Shown here in pieces: positions 9,971-50,383 of a stretch of DNA of 64,000 bases. The notes beneath the pieces are model-generated. The model worked only from the letters and a program-made list of their open reading frames with translations. It was not told where the DNA came from and did no database searches. The stretch is from assembly GCA_964524645.1 (NCBI GenBank), contig CAZGEC010000002.1, forward strand, positions 93,076 to 157,075, read 5' to 3'. The position numbers were made by a program, and so were the translations under genes. The number at the start of each line of letters is the position of its first letter. Position 1 is the stretch's first letter. Origin of the DNA: an uncultured Fibrobacteraceae bacterium. GTDB taxonomy: Bacteria > Krumholzibacteriota > Krumholzibacteriia > LZORAL124-64-63.

Positions 9971-10699
9971 CTAGCGGTACATGTCCTTCACGCCGCCCCA
10001 GGTGCTTTCCTGGTTGGCGACCGTGGAACAGGCGTTGGTGGCGCCCGGCGTGGCGTAGGAGACGTAGTAGCCGTCTTCCACCGTGCAGCCCGAGCCGGTG
10101 GACTCGGTGCCGTTCAGGCAGATGATGTACCACTCGCCGCCGACCGCATCGCAGTCGTCGCAGCGGGCTCCGCCGGCGGGATCGTAGCTCCCGTCGGGGC
10201 CGACGCCAGTGATTCCATAGTAGGTCATGCAGTCGCCCGAATCAGGAATCCCGTAGCCGACGCCGTCCACCACGGTGCCGATCGAGAAGTCGGCCACGCA
10301 GTCGCCGTCGGCGTCGATGTCCGTGCCGATCGGGTAGAGGCCCGCGTCGAAGTCGGCCAGCAGCAGGATGTTGTTGCCGCCGTTCTCGATCCAGCCATCA
10401 GCCAGCTCCAGGTCGGGGTTGACGGCGGCATCGCCGACCACGAAGTAGCCCGTTGCGCCCACGGAGTAGCCGTTCAGGCTGATGATGTTGTCGATGAGAC
10501 CGGAGGAGGCGCCCTCGCCCTCGACCAGGACAATGGTCAGGCCGTCCAGGCTCTCGCCGGGATTGCCGCACAGCTCGATGAACTCGTGATCATCGCCGCT
10601 GATGTCGTTGGAGACCCACTCGTTGATGACCACGGCGTTGGCTGCTCCGGCGATGGCCAGGCAGGCCGCCATCAGGACGGTAAGCATAATCTTGCGCAT
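9971..10699 (-). CDS. Secreted protein with a lamin-tail-domain-like N-terminus and the shared C-terminal WGGVKDMYR tail
   Basis: Signal peptide MRKIMLTVLMAACLAIAGAANA. LTD-like motif VVINEW..ND.SG.D.EFIELCGNPGESLDG. Ends STWGGVKDMYR-COOH. Confidence 0.75.
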   Translation of the reverse strand: MRKIMLTVLMAACLAIAGAANAVVINEWVSNDISGDDHEFIELCGNPGESLDGLTIVLVEGEGASSGLIDNIISLNGYSVGATGYFVVGDAAVNPDLELADGWIENGGNNILLLADFDAGLYPIGTDIDADGDCVADFSIGTVVDGVGYGIPDSGDCMTYYGITGVGPDGSYDPAGGARCDDCDAVGGEWYIICLNGTESTGSGCTVEDGYYVSYATPGATNACSTVANQESTWGGVKDMYR

Positions 10700-11062
10700 G
10701 TCGCGTGACCCCCTTCAGGGTTGGTTCCAGGTCCTTGGCCCTTGACGGTAGCAGAAGTGACGAGCATCACCTCCTTGCCGGTTAGGACGTGGCAAACCGT
10801 CGAGCCGCCGCATCGACGGCTGCTTACATTATTTTTCTAGTGTTGTCATGATATCACAAAATCATCTGGATGTAAAGGCACTTCGGGGCCGAAGGGTGGA
10901 CAGCAACGCAGTCCATGGAACTTTATTTCTGACATAACCTAAAAAAGCCACGCGGGCCGGATCCGCGCCCTGGCCCGTTCGGAACCGAGGCCGGAGCGGG
11001 CCGCGCCCGGCCTCATTGCTCCGCCCGCTCCCGTGCATTACACTGCCAACGGAGGTGGAACG

Positions 11063-12319
11063 ATGTTCCGGCACCCCATGAGCCGCCGGCAGTTCCTGCA
11101 GGCGGCCGCCCGCACTGGGCTGACGGCGGGCGGAGCCGGTCTGCTGGTGGCCAGTCCCGAGGCTCTCGTCCGGCTGCTGGGGGAGGGCAGCGCCGAGGCC
11201 CTCGCCGCCACCGATCTGCAGGCCCTCATCCGGCAGGCCCCCGTCGCGCGCTACTGGGTCTCGACCCTCACCCCCGGTGTCGACTGCGCCAGCTGCCACG
11301 CCCCGGGCGAGGTCGATCCGCACGCCCCCTTCGATCACGGGGGCCAGGGGATCGTCCGCTGCCTGCTCTGCGCCCAGCGCTGCCTGATCGAACCGGGCGA
11401 GCGCGGCCGCTGCCGGGCCCGCATCAACGTGAACGGGGAGCTGCGCACCCTGGTCTACGGGCGGCCCATCACCATCCACGTGGATCCCATCGAGAAGAAG
11501 CCCTTCTACCACTTCCTGCCCGGCCAGCAGGCCTTCTCCCTGGCGACCTCCGGCTGCCCGCTCCGCTGCAAGTTCTGCCAGAACTGGGAGATCTCGCAGG
11601 CCCGGCCCGAGGACTACGAGAGCCGCATCGTGCCGCCCGCCGATCTCGTCGGTGCGGTGCGCGACCGCCACGCGCCGATCGTCGCCTTCACCTACAACGA
11701 GCCGACGGTCTTCACGGAGTACCTGACGGACATCGCGCGCCTGGCCCGGGCGCAGGGCGTGCATCCCGTGCTGGTCAGCTGCGGCTTCATGAACGAGGAG
11801 CCGCTGACCGAGATGTGCGAGGTGCTGGACGCGATCAAGATCGACTTGAAGGGCTATACCGAGACGTTCTACCAGGAGGTCTGCGGGGCGGCGCTGCAGC
11901 CCGTGCTCCGCAGCATCGCCCAGGTCTCCCGCAGCGGGACCCACCTGGAGCTGGTGAACCTGGTGGTGCCCACGCTCAACGACGCGGATGCCATGCTGAC
12001 CGAGCTGACCAAGTGGGTGGCGGGCGAGCTGGGGCCGGACGTCCCGGTGCACTTCACCCGCTTTCATCCCGACTACCAGCTCCAGAACCTGCCGCCGACG
12101 CCGGTGGCCACGCTCGAGCGCGCGCGGGCCATCGCCCTCGCGCAGGGTCTGCACTACCCCTACGTGGGCAACGTGCCGGGCCATCCCGGCAACAACACCT
12201 ACTGCCCGGGCTGCGGCCAGGTCGTGATCGAGCGGCAGGGCTTCTTCATCCGGCGCAACGACATCGTGAACGGCCACTGCCGCTGGTGTGGGCAGGCCAT
12301 CGCGGGCGTGTGGAGCTGA
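11063..12319 (+). CDS. amrS: AmmeMemoRadiSam system radical SAM enzyme (AmrS-like) with a twin-arginine (Tat) signal
   Basis: RBS GGAGGTGG precedes MFRHPMSRRQFLQAAARTGLTAGGAGLLVASPEA (SRRxFLQ Tat motif). CPLRCKFCQNWEIS is a CxxxCxxC motif. Confidence 0.85.
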   Translation: MFRHPMSRRQFLQAAARTGLTAGGAGLLVASPEALVRLLGEGSAEALAATDLQALIRQAPVARYWVSTLTPGVDCASCHAPGEVDPHAPFDHGGQGIVRCLLCAQRCLIEPGERGRCRARINVNGELRTLVYGRPITIHVDPIEKKPFYHFLPGQQAFSLATSGCPLRCKFCQNWEISQARPEDYESRIVPPADLVGAVRDRHAPIVAFTYNEPTVFTEYLTDIARLARAQGVHPVLVSCGFMNEEPLTEMCEVLDAIKIDLKGYTETFYQEVCGAALQPVLRSIAQVSRSGTHLELVNLVVPTLNDADAMLTELTKWVAGELGPDVPVHFTRFHPDYQLQNLPPTPVATLERARAIALAQGLHYPYVGNVPGHPGNNTYCPGCGQVVIERQGFFIRRNDIVNGHCRWCGQAIAGVWS

Positions 12320-12359
12320 CGCTCCCCGAGCGGGGCCGGCGCGCGAAGAGGAGGATGTC

Positions 12360-13904
12360 ATGAGGTCCAGGGCGGCCGCGGGCCTGCTGGTCCTGTCGCT
12401 GCTGGCGGTGGCGGGCGGTCTGTACCTGATTTCCGCCACGCCCACAGCGGGCCCGGGTCCGCGACCCATGGCCGTCGCGGGACGCTTCTATCCCGCCGAC
12501 GGAGGCCGGTTGCAGGCCGCCGTGGAAGCCTTTCTGGAGGACGCGGTCCCGCCGCGCCAGGAACGGCCGGTCGCGCTGGTGGCGCCCCACGCCGGTTACG
12601 TCTTCTCCGGCCAGATCGCGGCCGATGCCTTCCGGCAGGCCAGCGGCCACGATTACGACCTGGTGGTGATCCTCGGCACCAACCACACGCAGCCGCCCTT
12701 CCGCGGCGTCTCGTTCTACCCGGGCGATGGCTACCTGACGCCCCTCGGCCTGGCTCCCATCGACCGCGAGGCGACCCGGGCCCTGGTGGCCGCCGATCCC
12801 GACTTCGGCTTCCGGCCGGAAGTGCACCGCGAGGAGCACTCGGTGGAGGTCCAGGTCCCCTTCGTGCAGGTCGCCCTGCCGGGGGTGAAGATCGTGGCGG
12901 CGGTGGTGGGGGACTCCGATCCCGACTTGTGCGGCCGTCTCGGGCGCGCGCTGGCCCGGGTGCTCGCCGGCCGCCGGCCGCTGATCGTGGCCAGCAGCGA
13001 CCTGAGCCACTACCCCGGGTACGAGGGATCCATGGCCGCGGATCGCGTGACGCTGACCGCCGTGGCCGCGGGCGATCCCGCCGAGCTGCCCGGGACGCTG
13101 GCGCGGGAGATGCGCAAGGGAATCTCCGGGCTGGCCACCTGCGCGTGCGGGGAGGGGCCGATCCTGGCCGCCATGACGGCGGCCCGCGAGCTGGGTGCAC
13201 GTTACGGCCGCATCGTCAGCCATGCCAACTCGGGCGATTCGGCCGTCGGGGACCCGGAGCGCGTGGTGGGCTACGGCGCCGTGGTCTTCGCGCCCGGTCC
13301 GACCTGGAGCGATACCATGGCGCTGCGTCTTCCTGTGCCGGCCGCGGCGGACGTGCCCCTGGGCGATGCGGACAAGCGCACGCTGCTGCGCCTGGCCCGC
13401 GAGACCATCCGGCGCTACCTCGCCACCGAGACCGTGCCCCTGGCCCGGGACCTCTCGCCGGTCCTCTGCCGGCGGCAGGGGGCCTTCGTGACGCTCGAGA
13501 AGCACGGCCAGCTCCGCGGCTGCATCGGCCACATGGCCGAGGACCGCCAGCTGGCCCAGGTGGTCGGCGCCATGGCCCTGCAGGCCGCCCTCAACGATCG
13601 GCGCTTTCCGGCCCTACAGCCGTCCGAGCTGTCCCAGTGCGAGATCGAGATCTCGGTCCTCACTCCGTTCCGGCCCGTCTCCGGTCCCGGGGCGATCACG
13701 ATCGGACGGGACGGCGTGCTGCTGCGCAAGGGGGGGCGCTCGGCGGTCTTCCTGCCCCAGGTGGCGCCCGAGCAGGGCTGGGACCGCGAGCAGATGCTGG
13801 ACCAGCTCTGCCGCAAGGCCGGCCTGCCGGCCGGGAGCTGGCGCGAGGGTGCCCAGCTCTTTACCTTCCAGGCGGAGGTCTTCGGCGAGTCGGACCTCCA
13901 CTGA
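12360..13904 (+). CDS. AmrB (Memo-like) - AmrA (AMMECR1) fusion protein with an N-terminal signal/anchor
   Basis: N-terminal half AGRFYPADG...APHAGY is Memo family. C-terminal half GAFVTLEKHGQLRGCIGHM is the AMMECR1 core. The N-terminus MRSRAAAGLLVLSLLAVAGGLYLI is hydrophobic. RBS GAGGAGGA. Confidence 0.85.
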   Translation: MRSRAAAGLLVLSLLAVAGGLYLISATPTAGPGPRPMAVAGRFYPADGGRLQAAVEAFLEDAVPPRQERPVALVAPHAGYVFSGQIAADAFRQASGHDYDLVVILGTNHTQPPFRGVSFYPGDGYLTPLGLAPIDREATRALVAADPDFGFRPEVHREEHSVEVQVPFVQVALPGVKIVAAVVGDSDPDLCGRLGRALARVLAGRRPLIVASSDLSHYPGYEGSMAADRVTLTAVAAGDPAELPGTLAREMRKGISGLATCACGEGPILAAMTAARELGARYGRIVSHANSGDSAVGDPERVVGYGAVVFAPGPTWSDTMALRLPVPAAADVPLGDADKRTLLRLARETIRRYLATETVPLARDLSPVLCRRQGAFVTLEKHGQLRGCIGHMAEDRQLAQVVGAMALQAALNDRRFPALQPSELSQCEIEISVLTPFRPVSGPGAITIGRDGVLLRKGGRSAVFLPQVAPEQGWDREQMLDQLCRKAGLPAGSWREGAQLFTFQAEVFGESDLH

Positions 13905-13922
13905 TCTCGATGGACCTCGTGC

Positions 13923-16115
13923 ATGACGTTCTGGCTGCTGGCCGTCGGTTTTCTCTCCCTGCTGGCGCAGGTCGTCCTGCTGCGCGAGCTGAACGTCGCC
14001 TTCTACGGTAGCGAGCTGATCTACATCCTGGCCCTGGGGGGCTGGCTGCTCGGAACAGCCACGGGAGCCCTGCTCGGCCGCAGGCCCCTGCGGCCCACGC
14101 CGGCCCGGGTGCGCCGTCTCCTGCTGGTCCTGGCCGTGGTCTTCCCGCTCACGCTGGCGGAGGTGCGCGGGGCCCGCCTGCTCTGGGGCGCCGTGCCGGG
14201 TGCCTACCTGCCCTTTCCCCGCCAGATCGCGGCGCTGCTGGTGGCCTTGCTGCCGGTGGGGGCGTTGCTGGGACAGCTCTTCCGGCTGGCCGCGGGTCTG
14301 GCCGCGCAGCGGGGCCGCACGCTGGCCTGGGCCTACGCCGTCGAGAGCGCCGGGGGCCTGGCCGGCGGTGTGCTCGCAACCTTGCTGCTGGAGTGGTCCG
14401 TCCCGAACCTGACCGCGGGTCTGCTGTGCGGCCTGTTGGCCGCCGGCGCGGTCTTCTGGCCCTGGCGCGGCCGTTCCCGCGGCCTGACCGGAGGGGCCGC
14501 CGCCGTCGCGCTGCTCCTGCTCGCCGCCCTCGCGGCCGGTCGCGGGCTGGATCGCCGGCTCACGACCTGGGATCATCCCCACCTGGCGGCGACGCGGGAC
14601 ACGCCCTACGGCCGCGTGACGGTCACCGACCGCGACGGGCAGCTCTCGGTCTTCGTGAACGACGCCCTCGCCTTCGAGAACGAGGGCACGGCCGCGGAGG
14701 AGTACGCCCAGCTGGCGGCCCTGCAGTGTGCCGAGCCGGAGTCGCTGCTGGTGCTCGGCGGCGGCGTGGAGGGCCTGGTGGGCGAGTTGCTCCAGCACCG
14801 GCCCGCGGCGCTGGATTACGTGGAGCTGAACCGCGACCTGCTGGACCTGGTGCGGTCCCGCCTGCCGCCCGCGGTGGAGGCCGATCTGGCGGCTCCGGCC
14901 GTGCGCGTGACCGTGGCCGAGCCGCGGCGCTTCCTGGCCCGGGCGGGCCGCTACGACCTGATCCTGATCGGCATGCCGGAGCCGGATTCGGGCCAGGCGA
15001 ACCGCTTCTACACGCGGGAGTTCTTCCAGATTTGCGCGGCGCATCTGCGGCCGGGCGGCGTGCTGGCCCTGCGCCTGCGGGCGGCCGAGAATCTGTGGTC
15101 GCCCCAGCTCGTGCGCCGGACGGCCAGCATCGCGCGCGCCCTGCGCGAGGTCTTCCCCGATCTGGTCGCCCTGCCCGGGACCACCGTGATCCTGCTGGCC
15201 TCGCCGGCTCCCCTGCCTCGCGATCCCGGGATCCTGGCGCGGCGCTGGGAGGATCGCGGGATCGTGACGCGTCTCGTCTCGCCCGCCTACATCCGCTACC
15301 TGTACACGAACGACCGCTTCGCCGAGGTGGCGGGATTGCTGCAGGAGTCCCGCGCTCCGGTCAACCTCGACCTGCGGCCCGTCTGCTACCAGTCCACGCT
15401 CCTGCTCTGGCTGGCCAGGTTCTTTCCCGCGCTCGCGCTCCTGGACTGGCCCGCCCGGATCTCCGCCTGGCCCTGGCGCGCCCCGGTCCTCTGGCTGGGG
15501 GCGCTGCTGCTCCTGGGCCTGCTGCTGCTGGCGCGGCGCGGCGAGGGATCCCGGCGCGCCGCCCGGGTGGGCATCGCGGGCGGGGTGGGCATGGTTCTCG
15601 AGACGGTGCTCATCCTGGCCTACCAGGTGCGCAGCGGCATTCTCTTCCAGGATCTGGGGCTGCTATTGACCGCCTTCATGGGCGGCCTGGCGCTGGGCGC
15701 GTTGCTGCTCGAGAGGTGGGGGCAGCGGCGACGGCAGGTCCTGGACATCACCGCCGGTCCGCCGGCCGGGGCGGTGCCGATCCCCGGCTGGCTGGGAGCC
15801 CTGTGCCTGGGCGGTCTGGCCCTGCTGGGCGCGGGCACGGCCGGGCTGGTGGCCGCCGGCCTCGCCGGCCGCCTGCTCGTCGCGGCCCTGCTGCTCCTGC
15901 TGGCCGGCACGGGAGTGGCCGCCGTCTTCGCGCAGGCCAGCCTGGCCAGCGGTCGCGACCAGGCGGCCGCCATCGCCCCCCTCTACGCCGCCGATCTGGC
16001 GGGAGGCTGTCTGGGCTCGCTCCTGGCCAGTCTCCTGCTCGTGCCGCTGGCGGGCCTGGGCGGCACGGCCCTGCTGGCCGTGCTGATCACCCTCCTGGGA
16101 CTGCTGCTGGTCTGA
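13923..16115 (+). CDS. Polytopic membrane protein with an embedded spermidine synthase-like (aminopropyltransferase-fold) domain
   Basis: Many TM helices flank LVLGGGVEGLVGEL...YDLILIGMPEPDS..FYTREFF, which is a SpeE-like Rossmann fold. Confidence 0.8.
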   Translation: MTFWLLAVGFLSLLAQVVLLRELNVAFYGSELIYILALGGWLLGTATGALLGRRPLRPTPARVRRLLLVLAVVFPLTLAEVRGARLLWGAVPGAYLPFPRQIAALLVALLPVGALLGQLFRLAAGLAAQRGRTLAWAYAVESAGGLAGGVLATLLLEWSVPNLTAGLLCGLLAAGAVFWPWRGRSRGLTGGAAAVALLLLAALAAGRGLDRRLTTWDHPHLAATRDTPYGRVTVTDRDGQLSVFVNDALAFENEGTAAEEYAQLAALQCAEPESLLVLGGGVEGLVGELLQHRPAALDYVELNRDLLDLVRSRLPPAVEADLAAPAVRVTVAEPRRFLARAGRYDLILIGMPEPDSGQANRFYTREFFQICAAHLRPGGVLALRLRAAENLWSPQLVRRTASIARALREVFPDLVALPGTTVILLASPAPLPRDPGILARRWEDRGIVTRLVSPAYIRYLYTNDRFAEVAGLLQESRAPVNLDLRPVCYQSTLLLWLARFFPALALLDWPARISAWPWRAPVLWLGALLLLGLLLLARRGEGSRRAARVGIAGGVGMVLETVLILAYQVRSGILFQDLGLLLTAFMGGLALGALLLERWGQRRRQVLDITAGPPAGAVPIPGWLGALCLGGLALLGAGTAGLVAAGLAGRLLVAALLLLLAGTGVAAVFAQASLASGRDQAAAIAPLYAADLAGGCLGSLLASLLLVPLAGLGGTALLAVLITLLGLLLV

Positions 16116-16118
16116 GCC

Positions 16119-16148
16119 AAAAAAGCGGGAGCCGCTCTCGCGGCTCCC
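16119..16148 (-). terminator. Rho-independent terminator for the PDZ gene, lying between convergent genes
   Basis: GGGAGCCG-ctctcg-CGGCTCCC, followed on the minus strand by TTTTTT. Confidence 0.5.
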
Positions 16149-16172
16149 GAGGCGCCGGATCGGGGGGTGTGA

Positions 16173-17222
16173 TCAGCGCCCTTTCTTCTCCTGCTGCAGC
16201 TGCTCCTTCAGCTGCTGCATTTCCTTCTGGAGCGCCTTCATCTCGGCCCGCAGCTCCTCCATGCTCTTGTCCGACTCCTCGCCGTACCAGCGATGGATCT
16301 GGGGCATGCGGCCCTCCATGCGCGGCAAGGCACGGTGCAGCCGCTGCATGTCGGGCATCATTCTCTCGAAGTTCTCCCCGCCGACCCAGCCCAGCGCGCC
16401 GCTGGTCTCGCCGAGTTTCACCTCAAAGGTCTTGTCCTTGCCCTTGCGCAGGACGGTGACGGCCACCTCGTCGCCCGGGTCCTTGTCGCGCAGGTAGGAG
16501 GTCACGTCGGCCACGTCGTCGATCTTCTCGTCGTCGATCTGCAGGATGACGTCACCCGCCTGCAGTCCGGCCTCGGCGGCCGGCGTATCCGCGTTGACCT
16601 CCTCGATCAGGGCGCCCTCGCCGTCCTCCACCCCGAAGTAGTCGCCGAGCTGGACCGTGAGATCGCGCAGGCTCACGCCCAGGTAGCCATGCTCGCGGCC
16701 CAGGTTGTGGTAGAAGTACCTTTGGCCTTCGTCGTCGCCCGGGCGGAGGATTTCGATGCGCTTGCCGCCGTCGTCGTTCCAGACCATGACGTCGGTCTTG
16801 CGCTCGCCGAGGGTGACCTCGAGGTCCTTGGACTTTCCGTCGCGGATGATGCCGATCTTCACCTCGTCGCCCGGTTCCTGCTTGCGCACCAGGCGAACCA
16901 GCTCGCCCGTGTCCTCGACCTTCTGGCCGGCGAAGGAGACGATCACGTCTCCCTCCTCGAGGCCGGCCTTCGCGGCCGGCGAGTCCTTGCTCACGCTGTT
17001 GACCAGCACGCCGCCGTTCTCGATGTCGAGAGCCTTGGCCATGCTGTCGTTCAGCTCCTGCATGCTGATGCCGAGCCAGCCCTGGCCGGTGGCCGACTCG
17101 GTGATCTTGGCGGGCTTGTCCGGCTTCTCGGTCCTGGCGAGGGCGCTGCCGGCGGTCAGCAGGCCGACCAGGAGGGCCAGCAGGGCCAGAGCCGTGATCT
17201 GGGGTATCAGGGGCCGTTTCAT
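16173..17222 (-). CDS. Periplasmic tandem-PDZ protein (DegP/DegQ-type PDZ pair with no protease domain) and a C-terminal coiled coil
   Basis: Signal peptide. Two PDZ domains (GWLGISMQELN...GVLV...PAAKAGL..GDVI.., then a second copy). No His/Asp/Ser trypsin-type domain. Confidence 0.8.
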   Translation of the reverse strand: MKRPLIPQITALALLALLVGLLTAGSALARTEKPDKPAKITESATGQGWLGISMQELNDSMAKALDIENGGVLVNSVSKDSPAAKAGLEEGDVIVSFAGQKVEDTGELVRLVRKQEPGDEVKIGIIRDGKSKDLEVTLGERKTDVMVWNDDGGKRIEILRPGDDEGQRYFYHNLGREHGYLGVSLRDLTVQLGDYFGVEDGEGALIEEVNADTPAAEAGLQAGDVILQIDDEKIDDVADVTSYLRDKDPGDEVAVTVLRKGKDKTFEVKLGETSGALGWVGGENFERMMPDMQRLHRALPRMEGRMPQIHRWYGEESDKSMEELRAEMKALQKEMQQLKEQLQQEKKGR

Positions 17223-17336
17223 GAGCGATCCTTTCCCGGGGGATGGAGCCTGGAGCCTGTCGGAGAATGCCGGGGAAACACGCGACCCGCCGGGCAGGTT
17301 CCCGCGGGCTGGCCGCAGCGGGGGGGCAGGGCGTCC

Positions 17337-20179: not shown

Positions 20180-20183
20180 GGAA

Positions 20184-25101: not shown

Positions 25102-26721
25102 CTAGGGCTGCTCCGCAGGCAGCGGACTCCACTCGCCCACCGCCTCGGCGTGTACCTTGACCGGTCCGCGGCTGGTCCAGGTCTGTTCGTAGTTGTAGTT
25201 CCAGCCCAGGTACTCCGATGCGCCGCCGCCCTCGGTGGTGATCAGGACGCGGTTCGAGAGCACTCCGATGGAGTCGGCCACCTCGCCGGGCCGCTCGCGA
25301 TCGCCGCCCTGCGGATCCACGTGAACCCAGCCGTAGCCCGGCAGGTAGACCTGGCTCCAGCGGTGGAAGACGTCGTCGGTGGAGGCCTCGTCGCCGCGGA
25401 CCACCACCGAGCCCACGTAGCGCGCCGGGATCCCCGCCGCGCGGCACATGGCGATGAACAGGAAGGTGTACTCGCTGCAGGAGCCGCTGCCCCGCTCCAG
25501 CACGCGCGGGGCCACGTTCCAGCCCCCCGACAGCTCGTAGTGCAGGCGGTCGCGGATGTAGCGGTGGATCCGCCGCATCATCCAGTAGGGATTGGTCTCG
25601 TCGCCCACGGCCTCCTTCACGGCGTTGACGATGATGGGATCGGTGATGCGGTACTTGTCCTCGTCCACCAGGTAGGCCTGCCGGACGTCCTTGGGGATGT
25701 CCTTCAGCGCGCCTACCCGGTGGGGATAGACGTAGTGGCGGACGGCGGCCAGCTCCACGTCCGCCGTCATCTTGACCTGCCGGCGCTGGGCCAGCGCCAG
25801 GTCGGTGAAGGCGTAGTGGGCCACCGGCTGCTGCCAGCGGTCCTTCAGCACGTCCTTCGGCGGAGGGTCGAGGACCAGCGCGCCCAGCAGCTTCTGGTTG
25901 GGCAGATCCCGCGGCTGAGCGATGTAGACGTCCAGGGTCAGGAGCTGACCAGGACCGTAGTTGCGGAACTCGTGCGTGAGCAGCAGGTGCAGCCGGTGCT
26001 TGTCGGAGATACGGAAGGGCTGGTCGTCCTCCAGCACGAGCCGGTCGATGCGGTCGTTCTGGTAATCGGCGCACCAGAGGGTCTTCCCGTCGCTGGCCAG
26101 CCCGCGCGCGTAAGGCCCTGGCGCGTCGAGGCTCAGCACGACCTCGCCGTCGTGGGCGGGGTCCATCAGGTAGATCCGGTCCTCGCGGCGGTCGGCGCTC
26201 CACAGGTAGCCCTGCCAGAAGGTCAGGCCGGTGGGCGTGGTCATGGGCGCGGTGAAGCGCTTGATCGTGGTGCCGTCCTCGGTGGAGATCTGGCAGATCA
26301 CGTCCTCCAGCGGGTCGCTCAGCCAGAGGTAGCGGCCGTCCCAGGCCAGGCCCTCCGGTCCCGCGGTGGGGGCTTCCAGGCTGTGGACGGTGATGCCGCT
26401 GTCGACGTCCAGGGCCAGGATGCGGTTCTCCTCGCCGTCGATGCACCACAGGAGCTTGCCGTCCCAGGCCAGGCCGCGCGGCACGAAGCCGGGCGCGGGC
26501 AGGATCCGGCGCACCTCGCCGCTGGCCGGATCGATGGCGTACAGCTGGTCGGTGAGCTGATCGGCGAGCCAGAGCTGATGGCCGTCCCAGGTCAGGCCGG
26601 TGGGGGCCGTGGCAGGGGTGGACACGGAACCGAGCACGTCGCCGGGCGTGGCGCCGGCGGCCGGAGCCAGCAGCAGCGCGAGCGCCGCGGCGAACACGAG
26701 AACGAGGCTGGATCGAATCAT
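25102..26721 (-). CDS. Secreted beta-propeller protein with a C-terminal transglutaminase-like cysteine protease domain
   Basis: Signal peptide. Repeated GLAWDG.LW blades. GSCSEYTFLFIAMCRAAGIPARYVGS is the transglutaminase-like core. Confidence 0.75.
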   Translation of the reverse strand: MIRSSLVLVFAAALALLLAPAAGATPGDVLGSVSTPATAPTGLTWDGHQLWLADQLTDQLYAIDPASGEVRRILPAPGFVPRGLAWDGKLLWCIDGEENRILALDVDSGITVHSLEAPTAGPEGLAWDGRYLWLSDPLEDVICQISTEDGTTIKRFTAPMTTPTGLTFWQGYLWSADRREDRIYLMDPAHDGEVVLSLDAPGPYARGLASDGKTLWCADYQNDRIDRLVLEDDQPFRISDKHRLHLLLTHEFRNYGPGQLLTLDVYIAQPRDLPNQKLLGALVLDPPPKDVLKDRWQQPVAHYAFTDLALAQRRQVKMTADVELAAVRHYVYPHRVGALKDIPKDVRQAYLVDEDKYRITDPIIVNAVKEAVGDETNPYWMMRRIHRYIRDRLHYELSGGWNVAPRVLERGSGSCSEYTFLFIAMCRAAGIPARYVGSVVVRGDEASTDDVFHRWSQVYLPGYGWVHVDPQGGDRERPGEVADSIGVLSNRVLITTEGGGASEYLGWNYNYEQTWTSRGPVKVHAEAVGEWSPLPAEQP

Positions 26722-26966: not shown

Positions 26967-27596
26967 ATGAAGAAATGGATCACGCTGCTCGCCGCTACAA
27001 CCTTGCTGACCGCTGGACCGGCGCTGGCCCAGTGCAACAATGGGCCGGACGAGATCTGCGTCGTGTGGGACTATCTGGGCGCGGACTGCCAGAACTGCAC
27101 GCAGTTCTACGGCGGTATCCTCAGCGCCTACGTCGTCCTGCAGAATGCCAGCACGCCGGCAGGGATCCTGGGCTTCGAGTTCATGCTCCGCAACCAGGGC
27201 GGAGCCACGTTCATGCCCCCGCCCACGGACATCATCCTCGCGTACATCCTGCCCTACCCGGGGATCAACGTCCTGACGCCGCCCGAGTTCATCGTGGGAC
27301 TACCCTACCCGGTGCCCTGGAGCCCCGCCATCCCGCTGGTCGAGATCCAGATGCTGGTCCTCGACTTCACCTGCTGGTGCTTCGGTGTTGCGCCCGTGCC
27401 CACTCCCTCCATACCAGGGCACATGGCTTTCGCGGACGGGGGCGATCCCGGGAACATCCTCCCTATGTATCCTTGCACGGGTCCGAACTGGGACTCCACC
27501 TTCATGACCTGCCTCAACTGCGAGTTCTGTCCGCCCGGCCCGCCGATCGTCACCGACAACATGACCTTCGGCGGCGTGAAGGCCATCTATCGCTGA
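26967..27596 (+). CDS. Secreted Cys-rich protein of the C-terminal GVKxxYR-tail family, with the shared N-terminal module
   Basis: RBS GAGGAGG. Signal peptide MKKWITLLAATTLLTAGPALAQ. N-terminal module ...ICVVWDY...AYVVLQNASTPAGILGFE. Ends MTFGGVKAIYR-COOH. Confidence 0.75.
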   Translation: MKKWITLLAATTLLTAGPALAQCNNGPDEICVVWDYLGADCQNCTQFYGGILSAYVVLQNASTPAGILGFEFMLRNQGGATFMPPPTDIILAYILPYPGINVLTPPEFIVGLPYPVPWSPAIPLVEIQMLVLDFTCWCFGVAPVPTPSIPGHMAFADGGDPGNILPMYPCTGPNWDSTFMTCLNCEFCPPGPPIVTDNMTFGGVKAIYR

Positions 27597-34417: not shown

Positions 34418-35050
34418 TCACTCCTCCTGGCTGCGGTACAGCGCCTTCACCGCGCCCCAGCTGCTGGCGATCACGGGGACGACATCGACGTTCACGCCCG
34501 CCACGGGCACGTCGTAGGAGGCCGAGGAGGGTTGGAGCGGGACAAGGGTTCCGGGCACGCCGTCGTTGGCTTGGTAGAATGCATGGATTCCATCGAAGGG
34601 ATCGATGGGGGGAGGGGGCTGGATGTACAAGCGGCCCCATTCGTCGAGGGAGTGCACGACGATGCCAATCTCGACGACGGGTATGGCGTAGGCCCACGGG
34701 ATCGGTGGTGCTGCCCCGAGAATCCAGTATGGATCACAGTTCGGAATCTGAATACCGCCCATGAGTGACCACGAGCACCAGTCATAAATCGTTCCCTCCA
34801 TGACGCCGTGGATGCCGATGCCCTGGACGCCGCTCTCGCCGCTGATGTTGATGAGCACGAGGTAGGCCATGACCGTTTGGTGTGGCTCCGTGGTGTGGAA
34901 GGTGGTGGTGAGCCCTTCCTGGTCGAAGTAGATGCCGACGATGTCCTGTTCCTCGGCCGTGGCATGGCCGGCGGGGAGTAAGACGAGGAGCGCCGTCAGG
35001 ACGACCGGCATGACGAGGACGCGCCCCTGCAGCGGGTATCTGGAGAGCAT
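34418..35050 (-). CDS. Secreted protein of the GVKxxYR-tail family, with the shared N-terminal module
   Basis: Start MLSRYPLQGRVLVMPVVLTALLVLLPAGHATA with a GGAGG RBS. N-terminal module DIVGIYFDQ...AYLVLINISGESGVQGIGIHGVMEG. The WGAVKALYR tail is followed by SQEE. Confidence 0.75.
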   Translation of the reverse strand: MLSRYPLQGRVLVMPVVLTALLVLLPAGHATAEEQDIVGIYFDQEGLTTTFHTTEPHQTVMAYLVLINISGESGVQGIGIHGVMEGTIYDWCSWSLMGGIQIPNCDPYWILGAAPPIPWAYAIPVVEIGIVVHSLDEWGRLYIQPPPPIDPFDGIHAFYQANDGVPGTLVPLQPSSASYDVPVAGVNVDVVPVIASSWGAVKALYRSQEE

Positions 35051-43928: not shown

Positions 43929-44399
43929 TCAGATGGCCTCGCTGGTCGGGCCGGGATAATTGTCCGCGATGTATTCCTTGAGGTAACGGATCTCGACCTT
44001 CTGCTGCCTGATGATGGACTTGACGCAGTCGCCGATGGACACGACGCCCGCCAGGCGTTCCCCCTCCATGACCGGCAGGTGGCGGAAGCGCTGCTCGGTC
44101 ATGATGCTGAGGGCCTCCTCCACGGTGCTGTCCGGCTCGGCGTAGATCACCTTGCGGGTCATGATCTCCCGCACGGACGTGTTGCGCGAGGAGCGGCCCT
44201 TCAGGATGATCTGCCGCAGGTAGTCGCGCTCGCTGAGGATGCCGCAGACCTTCTGCTCACCTTCCTCCTGGCACGTCACGAGCAGCGCGCCGACATTGCG
44301 CGCGTCCATCAGACCAATGGCCTCGAACACGGTGGCCTCGCGGTCGATGGTGAAGACCGCCGATCCCTTCTTCTCGAGCAGCTCCTTGAGCGTCTTCAT
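43929..44399 (-). CDS. CBS-domain pair protein
   Basis: Two CBS motifs. Confidence 0.8.
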   Translation of the reverse strand: MKTLKELLEKKGSAVFTIDREATVFEAIGLMDARNVGALLVTCQEEGEQKVCGILSERDYLRQIILKGRSSRNTSVREIMTRKVIYAEPDSTVEEALSIMTEQRFRHLPVMEGERLAGVVSIGDCVKSIIRQQKVEIRYLKEYIADNYPGPTSEAI

Positions 44400-44459
44400 G
44401 TCGATCCTCCTCGACGGGTGTGCGGGGAGCTTCCGCGAGCGGCGCCTCTCCCGGCGTGT

Positions 44460-45842
44460 TCAGTCCCTGGCCAGGCTGACGGGCCGGGTGGTGGCCTGGG
44501 GCACCGTCACGGTCAGATGATGCAGCCAGGCCAGGAGCGAGACGGCGGAGGCCAACAGCAGGGCCCCGGTGGCCTGATGGGCCGTCGTCAGGATCAGGTC
44601 AGCGACCAGGGGAGCCTCGCCGGCGCGCTCGGCTCCCACGGCCACCATGGCGCCCAGGCCGAGCCCCACCTGCACGCCGGTCAGGACCAGCAGCAGGCGG
44701 CCGAAGCCGGGCAGCGGCGCGAGTTCGCGGTGCAGGAGCACGACCAGCACGCCCAGCGAGATCGCCAGGGCCACCACCACGGCGGCCATGGTGACGTGAA
44801 CGAGCAGGCCGCTGCTTTCGTGGCGCAGGACGGCCCCCAGCACCAGCTGCACCAGCAGGCCGGCCGCCAGCAGGCGCGCGAGGCTACGCTCCAGGCCGGC
44901 CGAGGTGGCGACCAGGGGCTCGGCGGTGAGCCGCCAGCGTCGCGAGGCGAAGACGGCCAGCAGGGTCATCACGGCGAAGAAGACCTGCCCGGTGATTCCG
45001 TGGATCACCGCCAGCAGGAGGTTGGGTGCGGTCTCGGCCGGCGAGGCGCTCATGGTGAAGCGGCCGGTGACCCGGAGCCCGCCCAGGATGCCCTGCAGCA
45101 CCACCAGCACGAGCGCCGCCACGGCCGTGCGCTTCAGCCAGCGGCGCGGGTCCGTCCGCAGCAGGTGGATCACCAGAGCGAGGGTGGTCAGGCCCACCAG
45201 CGAGCCCAGGAGGCGGTGGGCGTGCTCGTAGTAGATGCCGCCGGTCATGCGCGCCAGCGGGTAGAGGAACATGTTGTAGCCGTAAGAGTTGGGCCAGTCC
45301 ACCACGGCCAGGCCCGCCTCGTGGCTGGTGACGATGCCACCGGCGACCAGGAGCAGGAAGGTGGCGGCCGCCGCCACGCCCGCGAACGCCGCGGTCCAGT
45401 CCGGCGGCGAATCGTCCCTCCCCAGCACGCCCTCCGGCGCCCGCCCGCGCCGCAGTGTCTTGCCCACCAGCGCGCCGGCGGCTCCGAGCAGAGTGCTCGC
45501 CAGCAAGGCGCCGGGCAGCCACAAGAGCGTCGAGGGCACGAGGTGGTTGGGGCGATCGCCCGACAGCAGGCTGCCGAGAACGAGCAGGTTGACGAGGCCG
45601 GCCAGAAGGCCCACCGCCATCCCGCCACGGATGCCGCGCGTGGTCCAGGAACCCGCCAGCAGGCCGCCGCCGAACAGGCTGGCGAGCAGCAGGACGAGGA
45701 CCGACCAGGCCGGAGCGTTCAGCCCGGGGTAACGACAGACATAGCCGATGGCCCACATCGTCACCGTGGTTCCGAATCCTAGGGCGAGGATGTCCGCTCC
45801 GTGGACGCGAGGAGATTGCGGGGATACCGACTCTGGAGGCAT
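44460..45842 (-). CDS. ctaA: Heme A synthase (CtaA/COX15 family) with a roughly 130-residue N-terminal membrane extension
   Basis: VTSHEAGLAVVDWPNSYG. Conserved His in TM helices. RBS AAGGAG. Confidence 0.7.
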   Translation of the reverse strand: MPPESVSPQSPRVHGADILALGFGTTVTMWAIGYVCRYPGLNAPAWSVLVLLLASLFGGGLLAGSWTTRGIRGGMAVGLLAGLVNLLVLGSLLSGDRPNHLVPSTLLWLPGALLASTLLGAAGALVGKTLRRGRAPEGVLGRDDSPPDWTAAFAGVAAAATFLLLVAGGIVTSHEAGLAVVDWPNSYGYNMFLYPLARMTGGIYYEHAHRLLGSLVGLTTLALVIHLLRTDPRRWLKRTAVAALVLVVLQGILGGLRVTGRFTMSASPAETAPNLLLAVIHGITGQVFFAVMTLLAVFASRRWRLTAEPLVATSAGLERSLARLLAAGLLVQLVLGAVLRHESSGLLVHVTMAAVVVALAISLGVLVVLLHRELAPLPGFGRLLLVLTGVQVGLGLGAMVAVGAERAGEAPLVADLILTTAHQATGALLLASAVSLLAWLHHLTVTVPQATTRPVSLARD

Positions 45843-46071
45843 GCAGGGACTCCTTGCGAGGTGGCCTGCGCCGGGATGAGGCGGCGGACCGTCGTGGACT
45901 TGGTTATCTTGCCGGACCGTGCGGCGAGCCTCACGTTGCGGCCACGGAGGCAGGGGGCGGAACCGCGGACCCGGAGCACGGGCCCCATCCCGACGGTGGA
46001 TCGGGACCGGACTTCCCGATATGATAGAAGCGAAGGCGGCCTGACCGCTAACGACAAGATCGCGAGGGCTC

Positions 46072-47061
46072 ATGGACGTCCGCGCCCGCATCGACAGCTA
46101 CCTCGAGCTGGCCAAGGCTCGCCTGACCTCCCTGGTGCTCTTGACGACCCTCGTCGGCTACCTGCTGCCCGGTCGCGGCGACCACGGATCGGCCCACCTC
46201 CTGTGGACCCTGCTGGGCACCGCCCTGGCGGCCGGCGGGGCCAACGCGCTCAACCAGTGGCTGGAGGTGGAGCAGGACGCCCTCATGGAGCGGACCCGGG
46301 GACGCCCCCTGCCCTCCGGGCGGCTGACGCGCCGGCATGCCCTGCTCTGGGGTCTCGGTACCGCGACGGCCGGCGTGGCGCTGCTGCTGATCCTGGTGGG
46401 TCGGGTGCCGGCGGCCCTGGCCGCCAGCGTGGTCCTGCTCTACACGCTGGCCTACACGCCGCTGAAGCGACGGAGCACCCTCTGCACCCTGGTCGGGGCG
46501 ATCTGCGGCGCCATCCCGCCGATGATCGGCTGGTCCGCCGCCACAGGCGGTCTGGAGCTGGGGGCCTGGCTGCTGGCCGCCACCCTCTTCGTCTGGCAGA
46601 TGCCCCACTTCTTCGCCCTGGCCTGGATCTACCGCCGCGACTACGCCCGCGCCGGGTATCGCATGCTGCCGGTCGTGGATCCCGCGGGGCGCGCCACCTT
46701 CCCGTCGCTCCTGCTGTTCAGCCTGGCGCTGCTGCCGCTGGGCCTGACCGTCTTCCTGATGGGGCTGGCGGGGCCGATCTATGCCGCCGGATCGCTGCTG
46801 GCGGGCCTCTTCTGGTCGTGGTTCGGCCTCCAGCTCTACCGCGAGCACAGCGATCGGCGCGCCCGCAAGGTCTTCCTGGGCAGCCTGCTCTACCTGCCCC
46901 TGGTGCTGGGTCTGATGGTGGCCGACCGCGGGCCCCTGGTGGGGATGTCGTCAGGCTACGATCTGGCCCAAGGCCCGATCTCTCCGGTGTCGGCGGGGCC
47001 TGCGGCGGCAACGCCGCTTCCCGCGCGGTCCACGGCGGATCCGGCGGGCCTGGCGCCATGA
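46072..47061 (+). CDS. ctaB: Protoheme IX farnesyltransferase (heme O synthase)
   Basis: UbiA-fold motifs NQWLEVEQDALMERTRGRPLPSG. Nine TM helices. Confidence 0.9.
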   Translation: MDVRARIDSYLELAKARLTSLVLLTTLVGYLLPGRGDHGSAHLLWTLLGTALAAGGANALNQWLEVEQDALMERTRGRPLPSGRLTRRHALLWGLGTATAGVALLLILVGRVPAALAASVVLLYTLAYTPLKRRSTLCTLVGAICGAIPPMIGWSAATGGLELGAWLLAATLFVWQMPHFFALAWIYRRDYARAGYRMLPVVDPAGRATFPSLLLFSLALLPLGLTVFLMGLAGPIYAAGSLLAGLFWSWFGLQLYREHSDRRARKVFLGSLLYLPLVLGLMVADRGPLVGMSSGYDLAQGPISPVSAGPAAATPLPARSTADPAGLAP

Positions 47062-48155: not shown

Positions 48156-48263
48156 GGGCCGGCGGTGCCTTTCCACACCGCTATTAGCAGATAATATTTA
48201 TCTTGGTTTTGGCTCCGGCAACGGCTAAGCTGCTCGCCTGGCGATCGACGCAAGGGGAATCTC

Positions 48264-49445
48264 ATGTCAGCTCCCGGTCGTTTTCTCCTGGTGGGCTTGC
48301 TCCTGGCAGCCGGGGCGCTGCTGGCCGGATGCAGCAGCCACGAATCGGACGATCAGGTGGTCGAGGGATCGCAGGTCAACGCCCGCGCCCTCAAGACCTT
48401 GCCCTACCTGGACTGGAATCCCATCGACCCGGCCTCGGCGAATGCCGACGGCGTGGTAAAATACGACGTGGAGAAGGCCAGTCCGGGGTACAACCTCTAC
48501 AACTCGCGGCCGCGGAGCCGCGCCGTGCTCATGGACATGGCCGGCCAGGAGGTCCACGCCTGGGAGCAGGACGTGCCGGGAGGCTGGCACCACATCGAGA
48601 TGGCAAGGGACGGCGCTCTCTACACCATCCTCGAGGACCGCTCGCTGTCCAAGCTGGACTGGGATTCGCATCTCCTCTGGTCGCTGTCCCTGCGCGCCCA
48701 CCACGACGTGGCCCTGGCGGACAACGGGGAAATCTACGTGCTCGTGCACAGCGACGAGGAGCTCGAGCTGGCCGGTCGCGAGCTGCCCATCATCGACGAT
48801 GACGTCCAGGTGCTGTCGTCCGACGGTCATCTGCTGCGGCACTACTCCATGGCCCGGCTCTTCGCGAACCGGCTCGGCGAGGGGACCGCGGCGGTGATCG
48901 AGAAGGCCCTGCACGAAGATGAGAGGGCGGCCAAGGTGCCGGGCGGCGCCTGCGATGTCTTCCGCGTCGACAGCATCGAGCTCGTACCCGGCGGTCTGCT
49001 CATCTCGGTCCGCGAGCTGGACATGATCGCCCTGGTCGATTTGGAGCAGGGGAAGCTGCTCTGGACCTGGGGCCCCGGACAGCTCGAGCAGCAACACCAG
49101 CCGACCATGACGGCCAGTGGGACCGTGCTCGTCTTCGATAACGGCACGCGCCGCGAGTACTCGCGGATCGTCGAGTATGCGCCCGATCGCGACGAAATCG
49201 TCTGGGAGTACACGCAGGGACCCGGCGGGAACTTCTACTCTTCCTCGCGGGGCGGCGTCGAAGGGCTGCCCAACGGCGACGTGCTGGTGACCGAGTCCAG
49301 CAAGGGGCACGTCTTCGAGGTCACGCGGGAGAGCGAGATCGTCTGGGAGTTCTACAATCCCGACCGCAGGAACGACGAGCGGGCGGCGATCTGCCGCCTG
49401 GCGCGCCTCGACGCCAAGATCGTCGAGCCGCTGCTGCAGCGCTGA
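48264..49445 (+). CDS. Arylsulfotransferase (ASST)-like beta-propeller lipoprotein
   Basis: Lipobox LLAGCSS. ASST-like repeats. Confidence 0.65.
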   Translation: MSAPGRFLLVGLLLAAGALLAGCSSHESDDQVVEGSQVNARALKTLPYLDWNPIDPASANADGVVKYDVEKASPGYNLYNSRPRSRAVLMDMAGQEVHAWEQDVPGGWHHIEMARDGALYTILEDRSLSKLDWDSHLLWSLSLRAHHDVALADNGEIYVLVHSDEELELAGRELPIIDDDVQVLSSDGHLLRHYSMARLFANRLGEGTAAVIEKALHEDERAAKVPGGACDVFRVDSIELVPGGLLISVRELDMIALVDLEQGKLLWTWGPGQLEQQHQPTMTASGTVLVFDNGTRREYSRIVEYAPDRDEIVWEYTQGPGGNFYSSSRGGVEGLPNGDVLVTESSKGHVFEVTRESEIVWEFYNPDRRNDERAAICRLARLDAKIVEPLLQR

Positions 49446-49474
49446 CCGGGAACGATCGGCGCGGGAGGCGAGAA

Positions 49475-49500
49475 GGCGGGTCACCGGCCGGCGACCCGCC
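49475..49500 (+). terminator. Hairpin GGCGGGTC-accggccggc-GACCCGCC between convergent genes
   Basis: 8-bp GC stem, then TTCGCTCTCG. Confidence 0.4.
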
Positions 49501-49555
49501 TTCGCTCTCGATGCCTCACGATCATTCGCGACCGATCAGCGCCCCGCGGCACGAT

Positions 49556-50383
49556 CTAGCGATAGAGCCCCTTGATGTGGCCGAAGCTCTGCTGCTCGCT
49601 GGGCACCGCACAGCCGGTCAGCGGGAAGCCGTCCGCGAAGGGTTCCAGCTTCCAGTCGTCGAAGCTGTAGGTCCACATGCCCAGGCCCCAGTTGGCGCAG
49701 TCGCCCACGTTCAGGACCGTCTCGTCGTACCAGTAGTCGTCGAACCAGATGACTGTCGTGCCGTCCTCGCTGCTGATGGCCTTCCACTCGCCGTAGGTGA
49801 GCAGCTCGGTGACGATGAATCCGTCGCTGATCCAGACGATGCTGCTCTCGTAGGGCTCGGGATCGGCCATGATCGCGGCAGCCGTCACGACGAGCGGCGG
49901 GGGCACATCGGCGGTGCCGATGACCAGGAAGTAGGCGGCGGGATCCGAGGCCGTGTAATCCGCCACGTCGAGCTCGGTCAGATCGTAGTACTCGTCGTAC
50001 ACCCCGTAGACGTCGACCAGGTCGCCGATCTGGGCCGTGTGGCCCGCGCCCAGGTAGACCCAGACGCTGTTGCCGGGGCCGTAGGGAGCCTCGGAGATGA
50101 CGCAGCCGTAGGTGGCCACGGCCGTCACGACCGCACCGGGCACCAGCACGTACTCGCCTTCGACGTAGGCGCCGCCGATCTGCAGATCGTAGATGGGGCC
50201 GGCCTGGACGGCGCCGGCGCAGAGCAGGAGGATCGAGACGATAACCAGCTTCTTCATGAGAAAAACCTCCCCCGGGGTTGGGCCCCATGGTCCTGGGGCG
50301 TCATGGTGTCGCTGGGCGATGAACGGGACGAGCCGAGACCGACGCGGGTGCGGACGCCGGGTGACCAGTCCCCCCCAATACAT
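49556..50383 (-). CDS. Secreted protein of the GxKxxYR-tail family
   Basis: Signal peptide MKKLVIVSILLLCAGAVQA. Ends QSFGHIKGLYR-COOH. Confidence 0.75.
   Translation of the reverse strand: MYWGGLVTRRPHPRRSRLVPFIAQRHHDAPGPWGPTPGEVFLMKKLVIVSILLLCAGAVQAGPIYDLQIGGAYVEGEYVLVPGAVVTAVATYGCVISEAPYGPGNSVWVYLGAGHTAQIGDLVDVYGVYDEYYDLTELDVADYTASDPAAYFLVIGTADVPPPLVVTAAAIMADPEPYESSIVWISDGFIVTELLTYGEWKAISSEDGTTVIWFDDYWYDETVLNVGDCANWGLGMWTYSFDDWKLEPFADGFPLTGCAVPSEQQSFGHIKGLYR

Follow-up and report, generated by a model that had tools for sequence, protein, structure and literature searches.

Why do exported proteins that otherwise have little in common end in almost the same ten residues? This question is raised by a window of DNA that comprises 64,000 nucleotides (64 kb) of contig CAZGEC010000002.1, from an uncultured bacterium labelled Fibrobacteraceae and placed by GTDB in the Krumholzibacteriota. 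A sequence-only reading of this DNA had noticed the shared tail in four genes, here called A to D, and had interpreted it as a short tag added to the proteins, as opposed to a folded domain that they share. We found the tail in all four proteins, each time fitting the strict motif [ST][FW]G.[VI]K.[LIM]YR, and our analysis bears out the proposal: the tail, about 20 residues in length, forms a C-terminal tag that is complete in itself and does not depend on the protein family. It is borne by at least 67 clusters of proteins unrelated in BLAST comparisons, and AlphaFold2 models it as a helix detached from the folded domain.

The occurrence of four such tails in one window is far beyond chance. 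The window is GC-rich (63-75%), and a filter on GC content at third codon positions (GC3) told coding open reading frames (ORFs) cleanly apart. Scanning all six frames of the whole window with the loose pattern [FWY]G.[VILM][KR]..[YF] gave exactly four matches, each located 1-5 residues before a stop codon in an ORF with coding-type GC3, and the strict motif was fitted by 4/4. In 200 shuffles that preserved dinucleotide composition, the mean numbers of loose, near-stop and strict matches were 0.195, 0.02 and 0, compared with 4, 4 and 4 observed. The DNA sequences of the four tails are alike only where conserved residues force them to be and show synonymous differences (TAC/TAT, CTG/CTC/ATG/ATC). 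Because the similarity is limited in this way, we regard the window tails as maintained by selection and not as recent copies.

The four genes are dispersed over both strands, and the N-termini of all four products are signal-peptide-like. Gene A (9971..10699, minus strand; coding-type GC3) encodes a 242-residue exported LTD-like protein whose N-terminus, MRKIMLTVLMAACLAIAGAANA, was judged by eye to resemble a signal peptide and which ends in STWGGVKDMYR; its tag, CSTVANQESTWGGVKDMYR-COOH, was located at 9974..10030 (minus strand) as a match to the pattern. Gene B (26967..27596, plus strand) encodes a 209-residue exported Cys-rich protein with the N-terminus MKKWITLLAATTLLTAGPALAQ, ending in MTFGGVKAIYR, with the tag GPPIVTDNMTFGGVKAIYR-COOH at 27537..27593 (plus strand). 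Its paralogue, gene C (34418..35050, minus strand), encodes a 210-residue exported protein that ends in SSWGAVKALYRSQEE, in which the tag VDVVPVIASSWGAVKALYR (34433..34489, minus strand) is followed by the four-residue extension SQEE (34421-34432). Five close orthologues of C retain the tag together with an extension of 1-5 residues, which is conserved among them. Gene D (49556..50257, minus strand) encodes a 233-residue exported protein ending in QQSFGHIKGLYR, with the tag GCAVPSEQQSFGHIKGLYR-COOH at 49559..49615 (minus strand). Its start had previously been placed at 50383, an in-frame ATG 42 codons upstream; because the signal peptide MKKLVIVSILLLCAGAVQA begins at 50257, with the stop at 49556, the start MKKLVIV at 50257 is the likely one.

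A fifth, incomplete locus at the window start (1..266, reading frame 3-266, minus strand) encodes the N-terminal 88 residues of a protein that is the third paralogue in the B/C group. The earlier reading had recognized it as a cut paralogue, correctly so in that it is a real ORF encoding a signal peptide and, in addition, a region 37% identical to B over 51 residues (E=2e-8), and it groups with B and C once tails are masked. This ORF is expected to bear the tag; its C-terminus falls outside the window. We thus count four complete genes and one fragment, not the six loci originally reported. In addition, B and C share 31% identity over 108 residues (E=4e-9). Because B, C and the fragment are paralogues, sequence comparison places the five loci in three families rather than five: A (LTD-like), B/C/fragment, and D. 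The description of the four proteins as dissimilar therefore stands for A, B/C and D as families and fails for B and C. In NCBIfam, protein D weakly resembled ExeM/NucH nucleases in their N-terminal region (E=2.9e-6), and the only match of protein B there was an insignificant one, to a lipoprotein model.

The family of protein A illustrates how clearly the tag is set apart from the domain that precedes it. We collected 61 homologues down to ~30% identity, plus one weak fragment match; one of the homologues is identical in sequence, and the only one that carries a taxon name, and hence the closest named one, belongs to Candidatus Eisenbacteria. The motif is present at the C-terminus in 57/61 homologues, 55 of which end exactly there, with the Lys invariant and the Trp and Tyr at least 90% conserved. 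The tag is held by selection, because homologues at ~30% identity still end in the motif. AlphaFold2, run on the family alignment, predicted a confident β-sandwich (mean pLDDT 88.5), and residues 231-241 were modelled as a helix of low confidence (pLDDT 42-49) that does not pack against this domain. The best PDB matches of the fold in a Foldseek search were lamin tail domains, although these matches are weak (E ~0.02, probability 0.91-0.95); UniRef names one orthologue 'LTD domain-containing'; protein A itself matched no Pfam model at E<10, that of the lamin tail domain (PF00932) included. A detached low-pLDDT helix was likewise obtained for an unrelated carrier with an NTF2-like core, so that the same arrangement is predicted in two folds.

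We then turned to the distribution of the tag outside the window. We ran HMMER with a tail profile of 16 columns, a search that has no positional preference, on 1.84 billion representative proteins and obtained 87 significant matches (E<=0.001), 81 of which contain a match to the core pattern. Among these 81, the protein ends exactly at the motif in 62 cases, continues for 1-4 residues in 13 and for more in 6. When tails were masked, the matches of at least 100 residues resolved into one large family, the B/C family and about 22 BLAST singletons. In addition, one genome per GTDB species was scanned with a DNA pattern for [ST]-W-G-x-[VIM]-K-x-x-Y-R-stop, which yielded at least 119 loci (L004-L122); all locus counts given here and below are among the matches listed. 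These loci encode 150 terminal tags. A signal-peptide-like N-terminus was found in 111/123 complete ORFs (90%), with a lipobox in 12 of these 111, and the median length of tagged ORFs is 239 residues. The 111 tagged proteins with a signal peptide form 67 BLAST clusters. Copies that had not themselves led to the selection of a locus are terminal in 26 cases and internal in 1, corresponding to ~32 per Mb. Together with the five loci in the 64-kb window, this density suggests, by extrapolation, dozens or more carriers per genome. The enrichment at C-termini, for which a test in other genomes had been proposed, is extreme. The outcomes named beforehand as speaking against a tag did not materialize, in that the tail is not the last strand of a known C-terminal domain, its terminal enrichment is strong, and the copies are no recent duplicates.

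With respect to taxonomy, for which we use the labels as written in the records, the listed loci come from Eisenbacteria (29), Krumholzibacteriota/-ia (6), Latescibacteria/-ota (6), 'Fibrobacteraceae/Fibrobacter' (7), Gemmatimonadota (3), Zixibacteria (1), Effluviviaceae (1) and unclassified sources (64). One of the 119 is an evident chance match (Nocardia, L111), in which the motif lies away from the end of an ORF, and another (L108) is a tagged gene on a 2.6-kb contig with the out-of-pattern label Limnocylindria; in the remaining loci the motif stands at the ends of long ORFs. Among labelled records, carriers thus belong mainly to Eisenbacteria, Krumholzibacteriota and Latescibacterota, mostly candidate phyla within the Fibrobacteres-Chlorobi-Bacteroidetes (FCB) group. 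The contigs labelled 'Fibrobacteraceae' or 'Fibrobacter' (L010, L012, L024, L050, L073, L092 and L103) have a GC content of 58-70%, which is unusual for Fibrobacter. These labels, as well as the Limnocylindria (Chloroflexota) bin of L108, probably reflect labelling or binning problems.

The consensus of the tag extends over about 20 residues and reads C-x-P-[VT]-[PA]-[VT]-E-x-[ST]-[ST]-W-G-x-[IV]-K-[AS]-[LM]-Y-R-COOH. Positions on which the scan pattern had set no constraint are conserved as well, namely P at -17, V/T at -16, P/A/S at -15, V/T/A at -14 and S/T at -11; at -13 the residue is Glu in 46% and Arg in 16% of the tails from the listed loci. The Lys is invariant in all sets, and Trp, Gly and Tyr reach about 90% or more where the search pattern imposed none of them. 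Arg is the last residue of most tails, with Lys or His in a minority. A Cys at -18 to -20 (49% summed), 9-11 residues upstream of the Trp, recurs across unrelated families; in the window it is encoded at 10028-10030 in A and at 49610-49612 in D. This Cys may be a disulfide staple that closes the passenger domain, or part of the signal.

The second half of the tag has the properties of an amphipathic helix. Its hydrophobic moment is 0.4-0.5 for helical and 0.15-0.2 for strand periodicity, its net charge +1 to +3, and its HeliQuest-type discriminant 0.8-1.5, which lies in the range of possible lipid binding. The mean hydrophobicity is 0.3-0.5; the stretch includes an internal Lys, and 11 residues separate the conserved Glu from a single Arg at the end. 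We also considered the tail as a terminal β-strand or donor strand, an idea that was rejected on the basis of this periodicity and of the helix modelled by AlphaFold2. On the predicted helix, one face presents W/[IV]/L/Y flanked by K and R, and the other small residues spaced four apart (G 98%; A/S/G/T 85%). Constraint on both faces suggests that a tight protein groove fits better than a lipid surface. The usual exact -YR-COOH end suggests in addition that the free carboxylate matters, yet it is not absolutely required, because short extensions such as SQEE in protein C are tolerated.

The passengers to which the tag is attached are diverse. They include β-helix, LTD, NHL and PD40 propeller, choice-of-anchor J, DNRLRE, ScyF-like NHL and TED/TQXA domains, along with M36 peptidases, CHRD and cleaved adhesin domains, PPC, carbohydrate-binding modules (CBMs) and pectate lyases. 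Such domains are typical of surface proteins, which in other lineages bear PEP-CTERM, rhombosortase, myxosortase or type IX secretion system (T9SS) signals. One group of carriers departs from the rule of a single terminal copy: a family of NTF2-like lipoproteins (P0075-P0105, P0124, P0130, P0135 and P0160), whose members bear 2-4 copies of the motif. The copies are arranged as a terminal tandem about 20 residues apart or stand between duplicated domains, and in some members one copy follows directly upon the signal peptide and another forms the end of the protein. In one metagenome-assembled genome, about nine paralogues of this family are encoded in a row (L069:1718-7877). The designation of the motif as a terminal tail hence holds for most carriers, which end exactly at it, and has to be widened for this lipoprotein family with its internal and tandem copies. 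The core of the lipoproteins, modelled by AlphaFold2 with a pLDDT of 66.6, matched NTF2-like proteins in Foldseek, including the PARC6/ARC6 domains. Because the NTF2-like pocket of PARC6/ARC6 binds the C-terminal peptide of a partner, we speculate that the NTF2-like lipoproteins are a candidate receptor family for the tag. Repeated copies fit avidity binding by a retained module better than a cleaved signal.

A second type of C-terminal ending is found close to the tag. Proteins with a FlgD_ig or T9SS-type C-terminal domain (CTD), ending in ...GVYFVRL...RKxVLLR, are encoded in 38/119 listed loci (e.g. L073:3-6290 and L024:3-6053), and in L073 a protein with three LTDs and a FlgD_ig domain directly adjoins an LTD-related tagged protein. 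The motif was present in 0/37 CTD proteins. The notion that the motif lies just upstream of FlgD-like T9SS domains was rejected on this count. Tag and CTD are mutually exclusive endings on overlapping families of passengers, which fits a choice-of-anchor pattern. CTD proteins mostly range from several hundred to ~2,000 residues, as opposed to the median of 239 for tagged proteins, which suggests that passengers are allotted to one ending or the other according to size. In the 64-kb window itself, neither CTD-like endings nor T9SS genes were found.

Does the tag correspond to a sorting signal that has already been described? Proteins A to D gave no Pfam match at E<10 and no sorting-signal match in NCBIfam, the CTERM models included, and among the Pfam and NCBIfam families most frequently matched by the 111 further carriers there was no C-terminal sorting model. 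No PDB chain with the tail was found in a PDB sequence search, and full-text literature searches returned nothing relevant for tail peptide strings or for sorting signals in these phyla. In the sources searched, the carriers are named only 'hypothetical protein'. As far as the libraries searched allow a comparison, the tail matches no described sorting signal, in line with the initial view that it differs from CTERM, T9SS and outer-membrane protein (OMP) signals. More specifically, the T9SS type A CTD profiles (TIGR04183, PF18962/Por_Secre_tail and FlgD_ig) were not matched by A to D at E<10, while genuine CTDs in the listed loci, such as the FlgD_ig domain in L073, were recognized and served as a detection control. 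The CTD fold is an Ig-like β-sandwich of 70-100 residues; conservation of the tag covers about 20 residues, which are helical and detached. Sortase-type signals are tripartite and include a transmembrane helix of ~20 hydrophobic residues and a basic cluster, an architecture that the tag does not have, and a cognate sortase-type gene was neither found in the window nor recurrent across the 119 listed loci. The tag also differs from an OMP β-signal, in which an aromatic last residue closes an amphipathic strand of a β-barrel, in that it ends in Arg and has weak strand periodicity, with protein A modelled as a soluble β-sandwich, and from Lpp-type attachment through a C-terminal Lys in that its invariant Lys lies five residues from an end that is mostly Arg. 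Like the anchors of the PBP5/MinD type, the tag has a predicted amphipathic helix at its very C-terminus, whose binding to lipid bilayers would be putative.

Based on these findings, we consider it fairly probable that the tag is a C-terminal targeting or anchoring label that is read by a conserved envelope partner, probably through non-covalent docking of a retained helix. The tag consists of an extended linker next to the Cys, C-x-P-[VT]-[PA]-[VT]-E-x-[ST]-[ST], a predicted ten-residue amphipathic helix, W-G-x-[IV]-K-[AS]-[LM]-Y-R, and usually a free carboxyl group right behind the Arg. Upon Sec-dependent export of the passenger, the flexible tail would be bound by one conserved envelope component, and the bound tail would hold or route the passenger at the cell envelope or surface. 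In related tag-bearing genomes, the tag could thus serve as an alternative to the ~80-residue T9SS CTD of other, mostly larger proteins. Docking is preferred over a cleaved, sortase-type signal because tandem copies and copies at both ends fit avidity binding. Precedents are the ligands of PDZ domains and carboxylate-clamp TPR proteins and the tails of PDV1/PDV2 in the PARC6/ARC6 pocket, all of which, like the tag, present a free C-terminus with a conserved terminal motif; moreover, the family richest in the tag is itself NTF2-like, with fold matches that include PARC6/ARC6. A terminal Arg, in contrast, would be unusual for a PDZ ligand. More tentatively, and as a possibility that we hold to be distinctly less than even, the tag might be the address label of a new pathway in Eisenbacteria, Krumholzibacteriota, Latescibacterota and related FCB phyla, distinct from T9SS and sortases, in which a dedicated receptor would take up the WGxIKALYR-COOH helix and thereby display dozens of small proteins. 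One candidate receptor in such a pathway is the outer-membrane NTF2-like lipoprotein family with its 2-4 copies of the tag.

Several observations weigh against a label that is read by a dedicated partner, which we infer from the features described above. AlphaFold2 gave no confident docking when NTF2-like carriers were modelled as binding their own tags in cis. No receptor, sorting enzyme or translocon was identified, and no candidate for one recurs beside carriers in the listed loci, where the only recurring neighbours are T9SS-CTD cargo, kinases, sensors and housekeeping genes; the earlier remark that no sorting enzyme is evident nearby thus extends to the other loci. This is what one would see if the substrates are dispersed and their machinery is encoded at another place. 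Internal copies that precede a further domain also fit a processing site with cleavage after Arg, and a helix that is amphipathic, cationic and aromatic could attach to lipid with no protein partner involved. Furthermore, the genome scan forced CGN codons for Arg, so that low-GC lineages are perhaps under-sampled, the listed loci provide neither per-genome counts nor the full taxonomic range, and the estimate of dozens of carriers per genome is drawn from loci that were chosen for holding a copy.

The alternatives partly overlap with docking to an envelope partner as to the machinery involved. Rather doubtful, in our opinion, is a pure lipid anchor, in which the terminal helix would lie in the plane of a leaflet, on the outer face of the inner membrane or in the outer membrane, and would tether the protein peripherally with no receptor protein. 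Tethering of this kind is known from PBP5/6, by their C-terminal helices, and from MinD and FtsA, by their membrane-targeting sequences, and the tag resembles these elements as a short, amphipathic, cationic and aromatic helix that forms the very C-terminus and follows a flexible linker. The predicted detachment of the helix, its moment, charge and discriminant, and the placement of Trp and Tyr beside Lys and Arg, which are typical interfacial residues, would all suit such an anchor, and tandem copies would raise its avidity. However, these known anchors are conserved in character only and belong to one family each, whereas the tag is near-invariant over at least 67 families, with a conserved linker and an exact end. 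Conservation to this degree exceeds the needs of amphipathicity by far, the polar face is limited to small residues (G-x-x-x-[ASG]), and ten residues are short for a stable in-plane anchor. A lipid anchor would also leave the exact -YR-COOH end unexplained, and passengers of the pectate lyase, CBM and adhesin types are expected outside the cell. Unlikely as well is a minimal T9SS-related signal, that is, a tail read by a T9SS component, for example as a mimic of the last CTD strand ...K-x-V-L-L-[RK]-COOH, by which small proteins would be routed through or onto this system. T9SS is largely confined to the FCB group, to which most of the named labels belong. Like the CTD, the tag is a C-terminal, family-independent signal on Sec-exported proteins of this group with dozens to hundreds of dispersed carriers per genome (for the tag by extrapolation), and the two share passengers (LTDs, β-helices, propellers, CBMs and peptidases). 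They occur in related genomes and in the same loci, and the same passenger domains take either ending and never both. Both endings also finish with hydrophobic-L-hydrophobic-[RK]-COOH and a Lys a few residues upstream. Against this stand the lack of any hidden Markov model similarity between the tag and TIGR04183, Por_Secre_tail or FlgD_ig, the helical periodicity, and the difference in size between a helix of ~20 residues and an Ig-like sandwich of 70-100. Published work indicates that the whole CTD fold is required for secretion by T9SS, internal and N-terminal copies are unlike a CTD, and neither a T9SS gene nor CTD cargo was found in the window.

We regard as quite unlikely a cleaved, sortase-like signal, for which a transpeptidase or protease would read the P-V-(P)-V-E/Cys region, remove the helix and attach the protein covalently, possibly via the Cys. 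Such a view can point to a loosely tripartite order of a C..PVPVE motif, a semi-hydrophobic stretch and a terminal Arg, and to the enrichment of Cys at -18 to -20; MYXO-CTERM signals likewise have a conserved Cys near their start. Homologues of the passengers elsewhere, including choice-of-anchor J, ScyF-like NHL and M36 peptidase proteins, are substrates of exosortase, rhombosortase or myxosortase, with PEP-CTERM/exosortase and MYXO-CTERM/myxosortase as the analogues. The tag resembles PEP-CTERM, GlyGly-CTERM/rhombosortase, MYXO-CTERM, LPXTG and PGF-CTERM in being a short, near-C-terminal, lineage-restricted motif on many unrelated exported proteins, which are numerous and dispersed as in known substrate families. 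Unlike these signals, it has neither a transmembrane helix nor a basic cluster, as it stops ~11 residues past the conserved Glu at a hydrophobicity of 0.3-0.5; no CTERM model was matched, no sortase-type gene recurs near carriers in the listed loci, and signals of this kind are not known to occur in tandem, internally or at the N-terminus. Even less credit is due to a covalent handle or processing site, in which the Lys would be cross-linked (to peptidoglycan by an L,D-transpeptidase, or to a second protein by a transglutaminase-type enzyme), or the protein would be cleaved or degraded behind YR by an Arg-specific protease that binds C-termini; this we hold to be very unlikely. The Lys is invariant, internal copies lie exactly at domain boundaries, where cleavage after Arg would release domains that each end in -YR, and the window encodes a secreted transglutaminase-core protein next to B as well as a protein with two PDZ domains. 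Lpp ends in -Y-R-K-COOH, which recalls the end of the tag and is a lead only. Nevertheless, the Lys lies within the tag, tails with Lys as the last residue are a minority, the genes for the transglutaminase-like and PDZ proteins have no recurrent counterparts beside carriers in other genomes, and a degradation signal on many conserved secreted proteins is implausible. Finally, it is barely conceivable that there is no tag at all, and that the tails are the last element of a shared domain, recent duplicates or chance matches. The kinship of B, C and the cut ORF would speak for this, but it is countered by the 67 unrelated clusters among the listed loci, the detachment of the helix from two folds, the synonymous DNA differences, and shuffles that gave 0 strict matches instead of 4.

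The tag probably belongs with the C-terminal sorting and anchoring signals, and the chance is considerable that a new pathway lies behind it. LPXTG, PEP-CTERM, GlyGly-CTERM and the T9SS CTD each led to the discovery of dedicated machinery, and predictions of which proteins uncultured bacteria expose at their surface depend mainly on C-terminal sorting signals. The proteins marked by the tag are numerous, by our estimate dozens in each genome, and the sources searched call them only 'hypothetical protein'; the labelled records come mostly from candidate phyla in which cultured members are few or lacking. The architecture of the tag, a linker and amphipathic helix of about 20 residues that includes neither a transmembrane segment nor a folded domain, is unlike any signal that we found. 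The tag could be used as an annotation profile, as bait for phylogenetic profiling of its reader, or as a compact display and anchoring tag. It also raises the question of why related genomes hold both the T9SS CTD and the tag, apparently sorting passengers by size.

Apart from the tagged genes, the window contains a number of neighbours that deserve mention; none of its PDZ, transglutaminase-like, TPR and ASST-like genes recurs beside carriers in other genomes. A 387-residue protein encoded at 16176-17336 (minus strand) contains two PDZ domains, and no protease domain was detected in it. As PDZ domains bind free C-termini, this protein is a possible reader of the tag. An untagged secreted protein encoded at 25102-26721 (minus strand), divergently from B at a distance of 245 bp, combines β-propeller-like repeats with a transglutaminase-core domain, and is of interest only because the Lys of the tag is invariant. 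Gene A is adjoined by an AmmeMemoRadiSam system, consisting of a radical SAM enzyme and an AMMECR1-Memo fusion, and by a spermine-synthase-like protein (10943-16115, plus strand). In two other genomes (L037:185-3992 and L117:3183-7054), the same radical SAM gene is followed, at a distance of ~120 bp and in the same orientation, by the gene of a different tagged protein, with a β-helix. This adjacency was seen twice against ~0.24 expected in the 119 listed loci, the two cases probably being mutual orthologues, and it could be due to lineage synteny or to a functional link.

At the beginning of the window (383-1285, minus strand), two coding-type ORFs in one frame are split by a single TAG at 893-895, and the upstream one begins with the signal peptide of a lipoprotein; this arrangement may represent a pseudogene, a sequencing error or two separate genes. 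The other end is occupied by a respiratory cluster (50496-63506, minus strand) for cytochrome c oxidase subunits, c-type cytochromes, an NrfD-like membrane protein and a 1258-residue 4Fe-4S protein, and genes for haem A/O synthesis are located at 44460-47061. Because of this cluster and the haem A/O synthesis genes, the organism appears to be aerobic or microaerobic.

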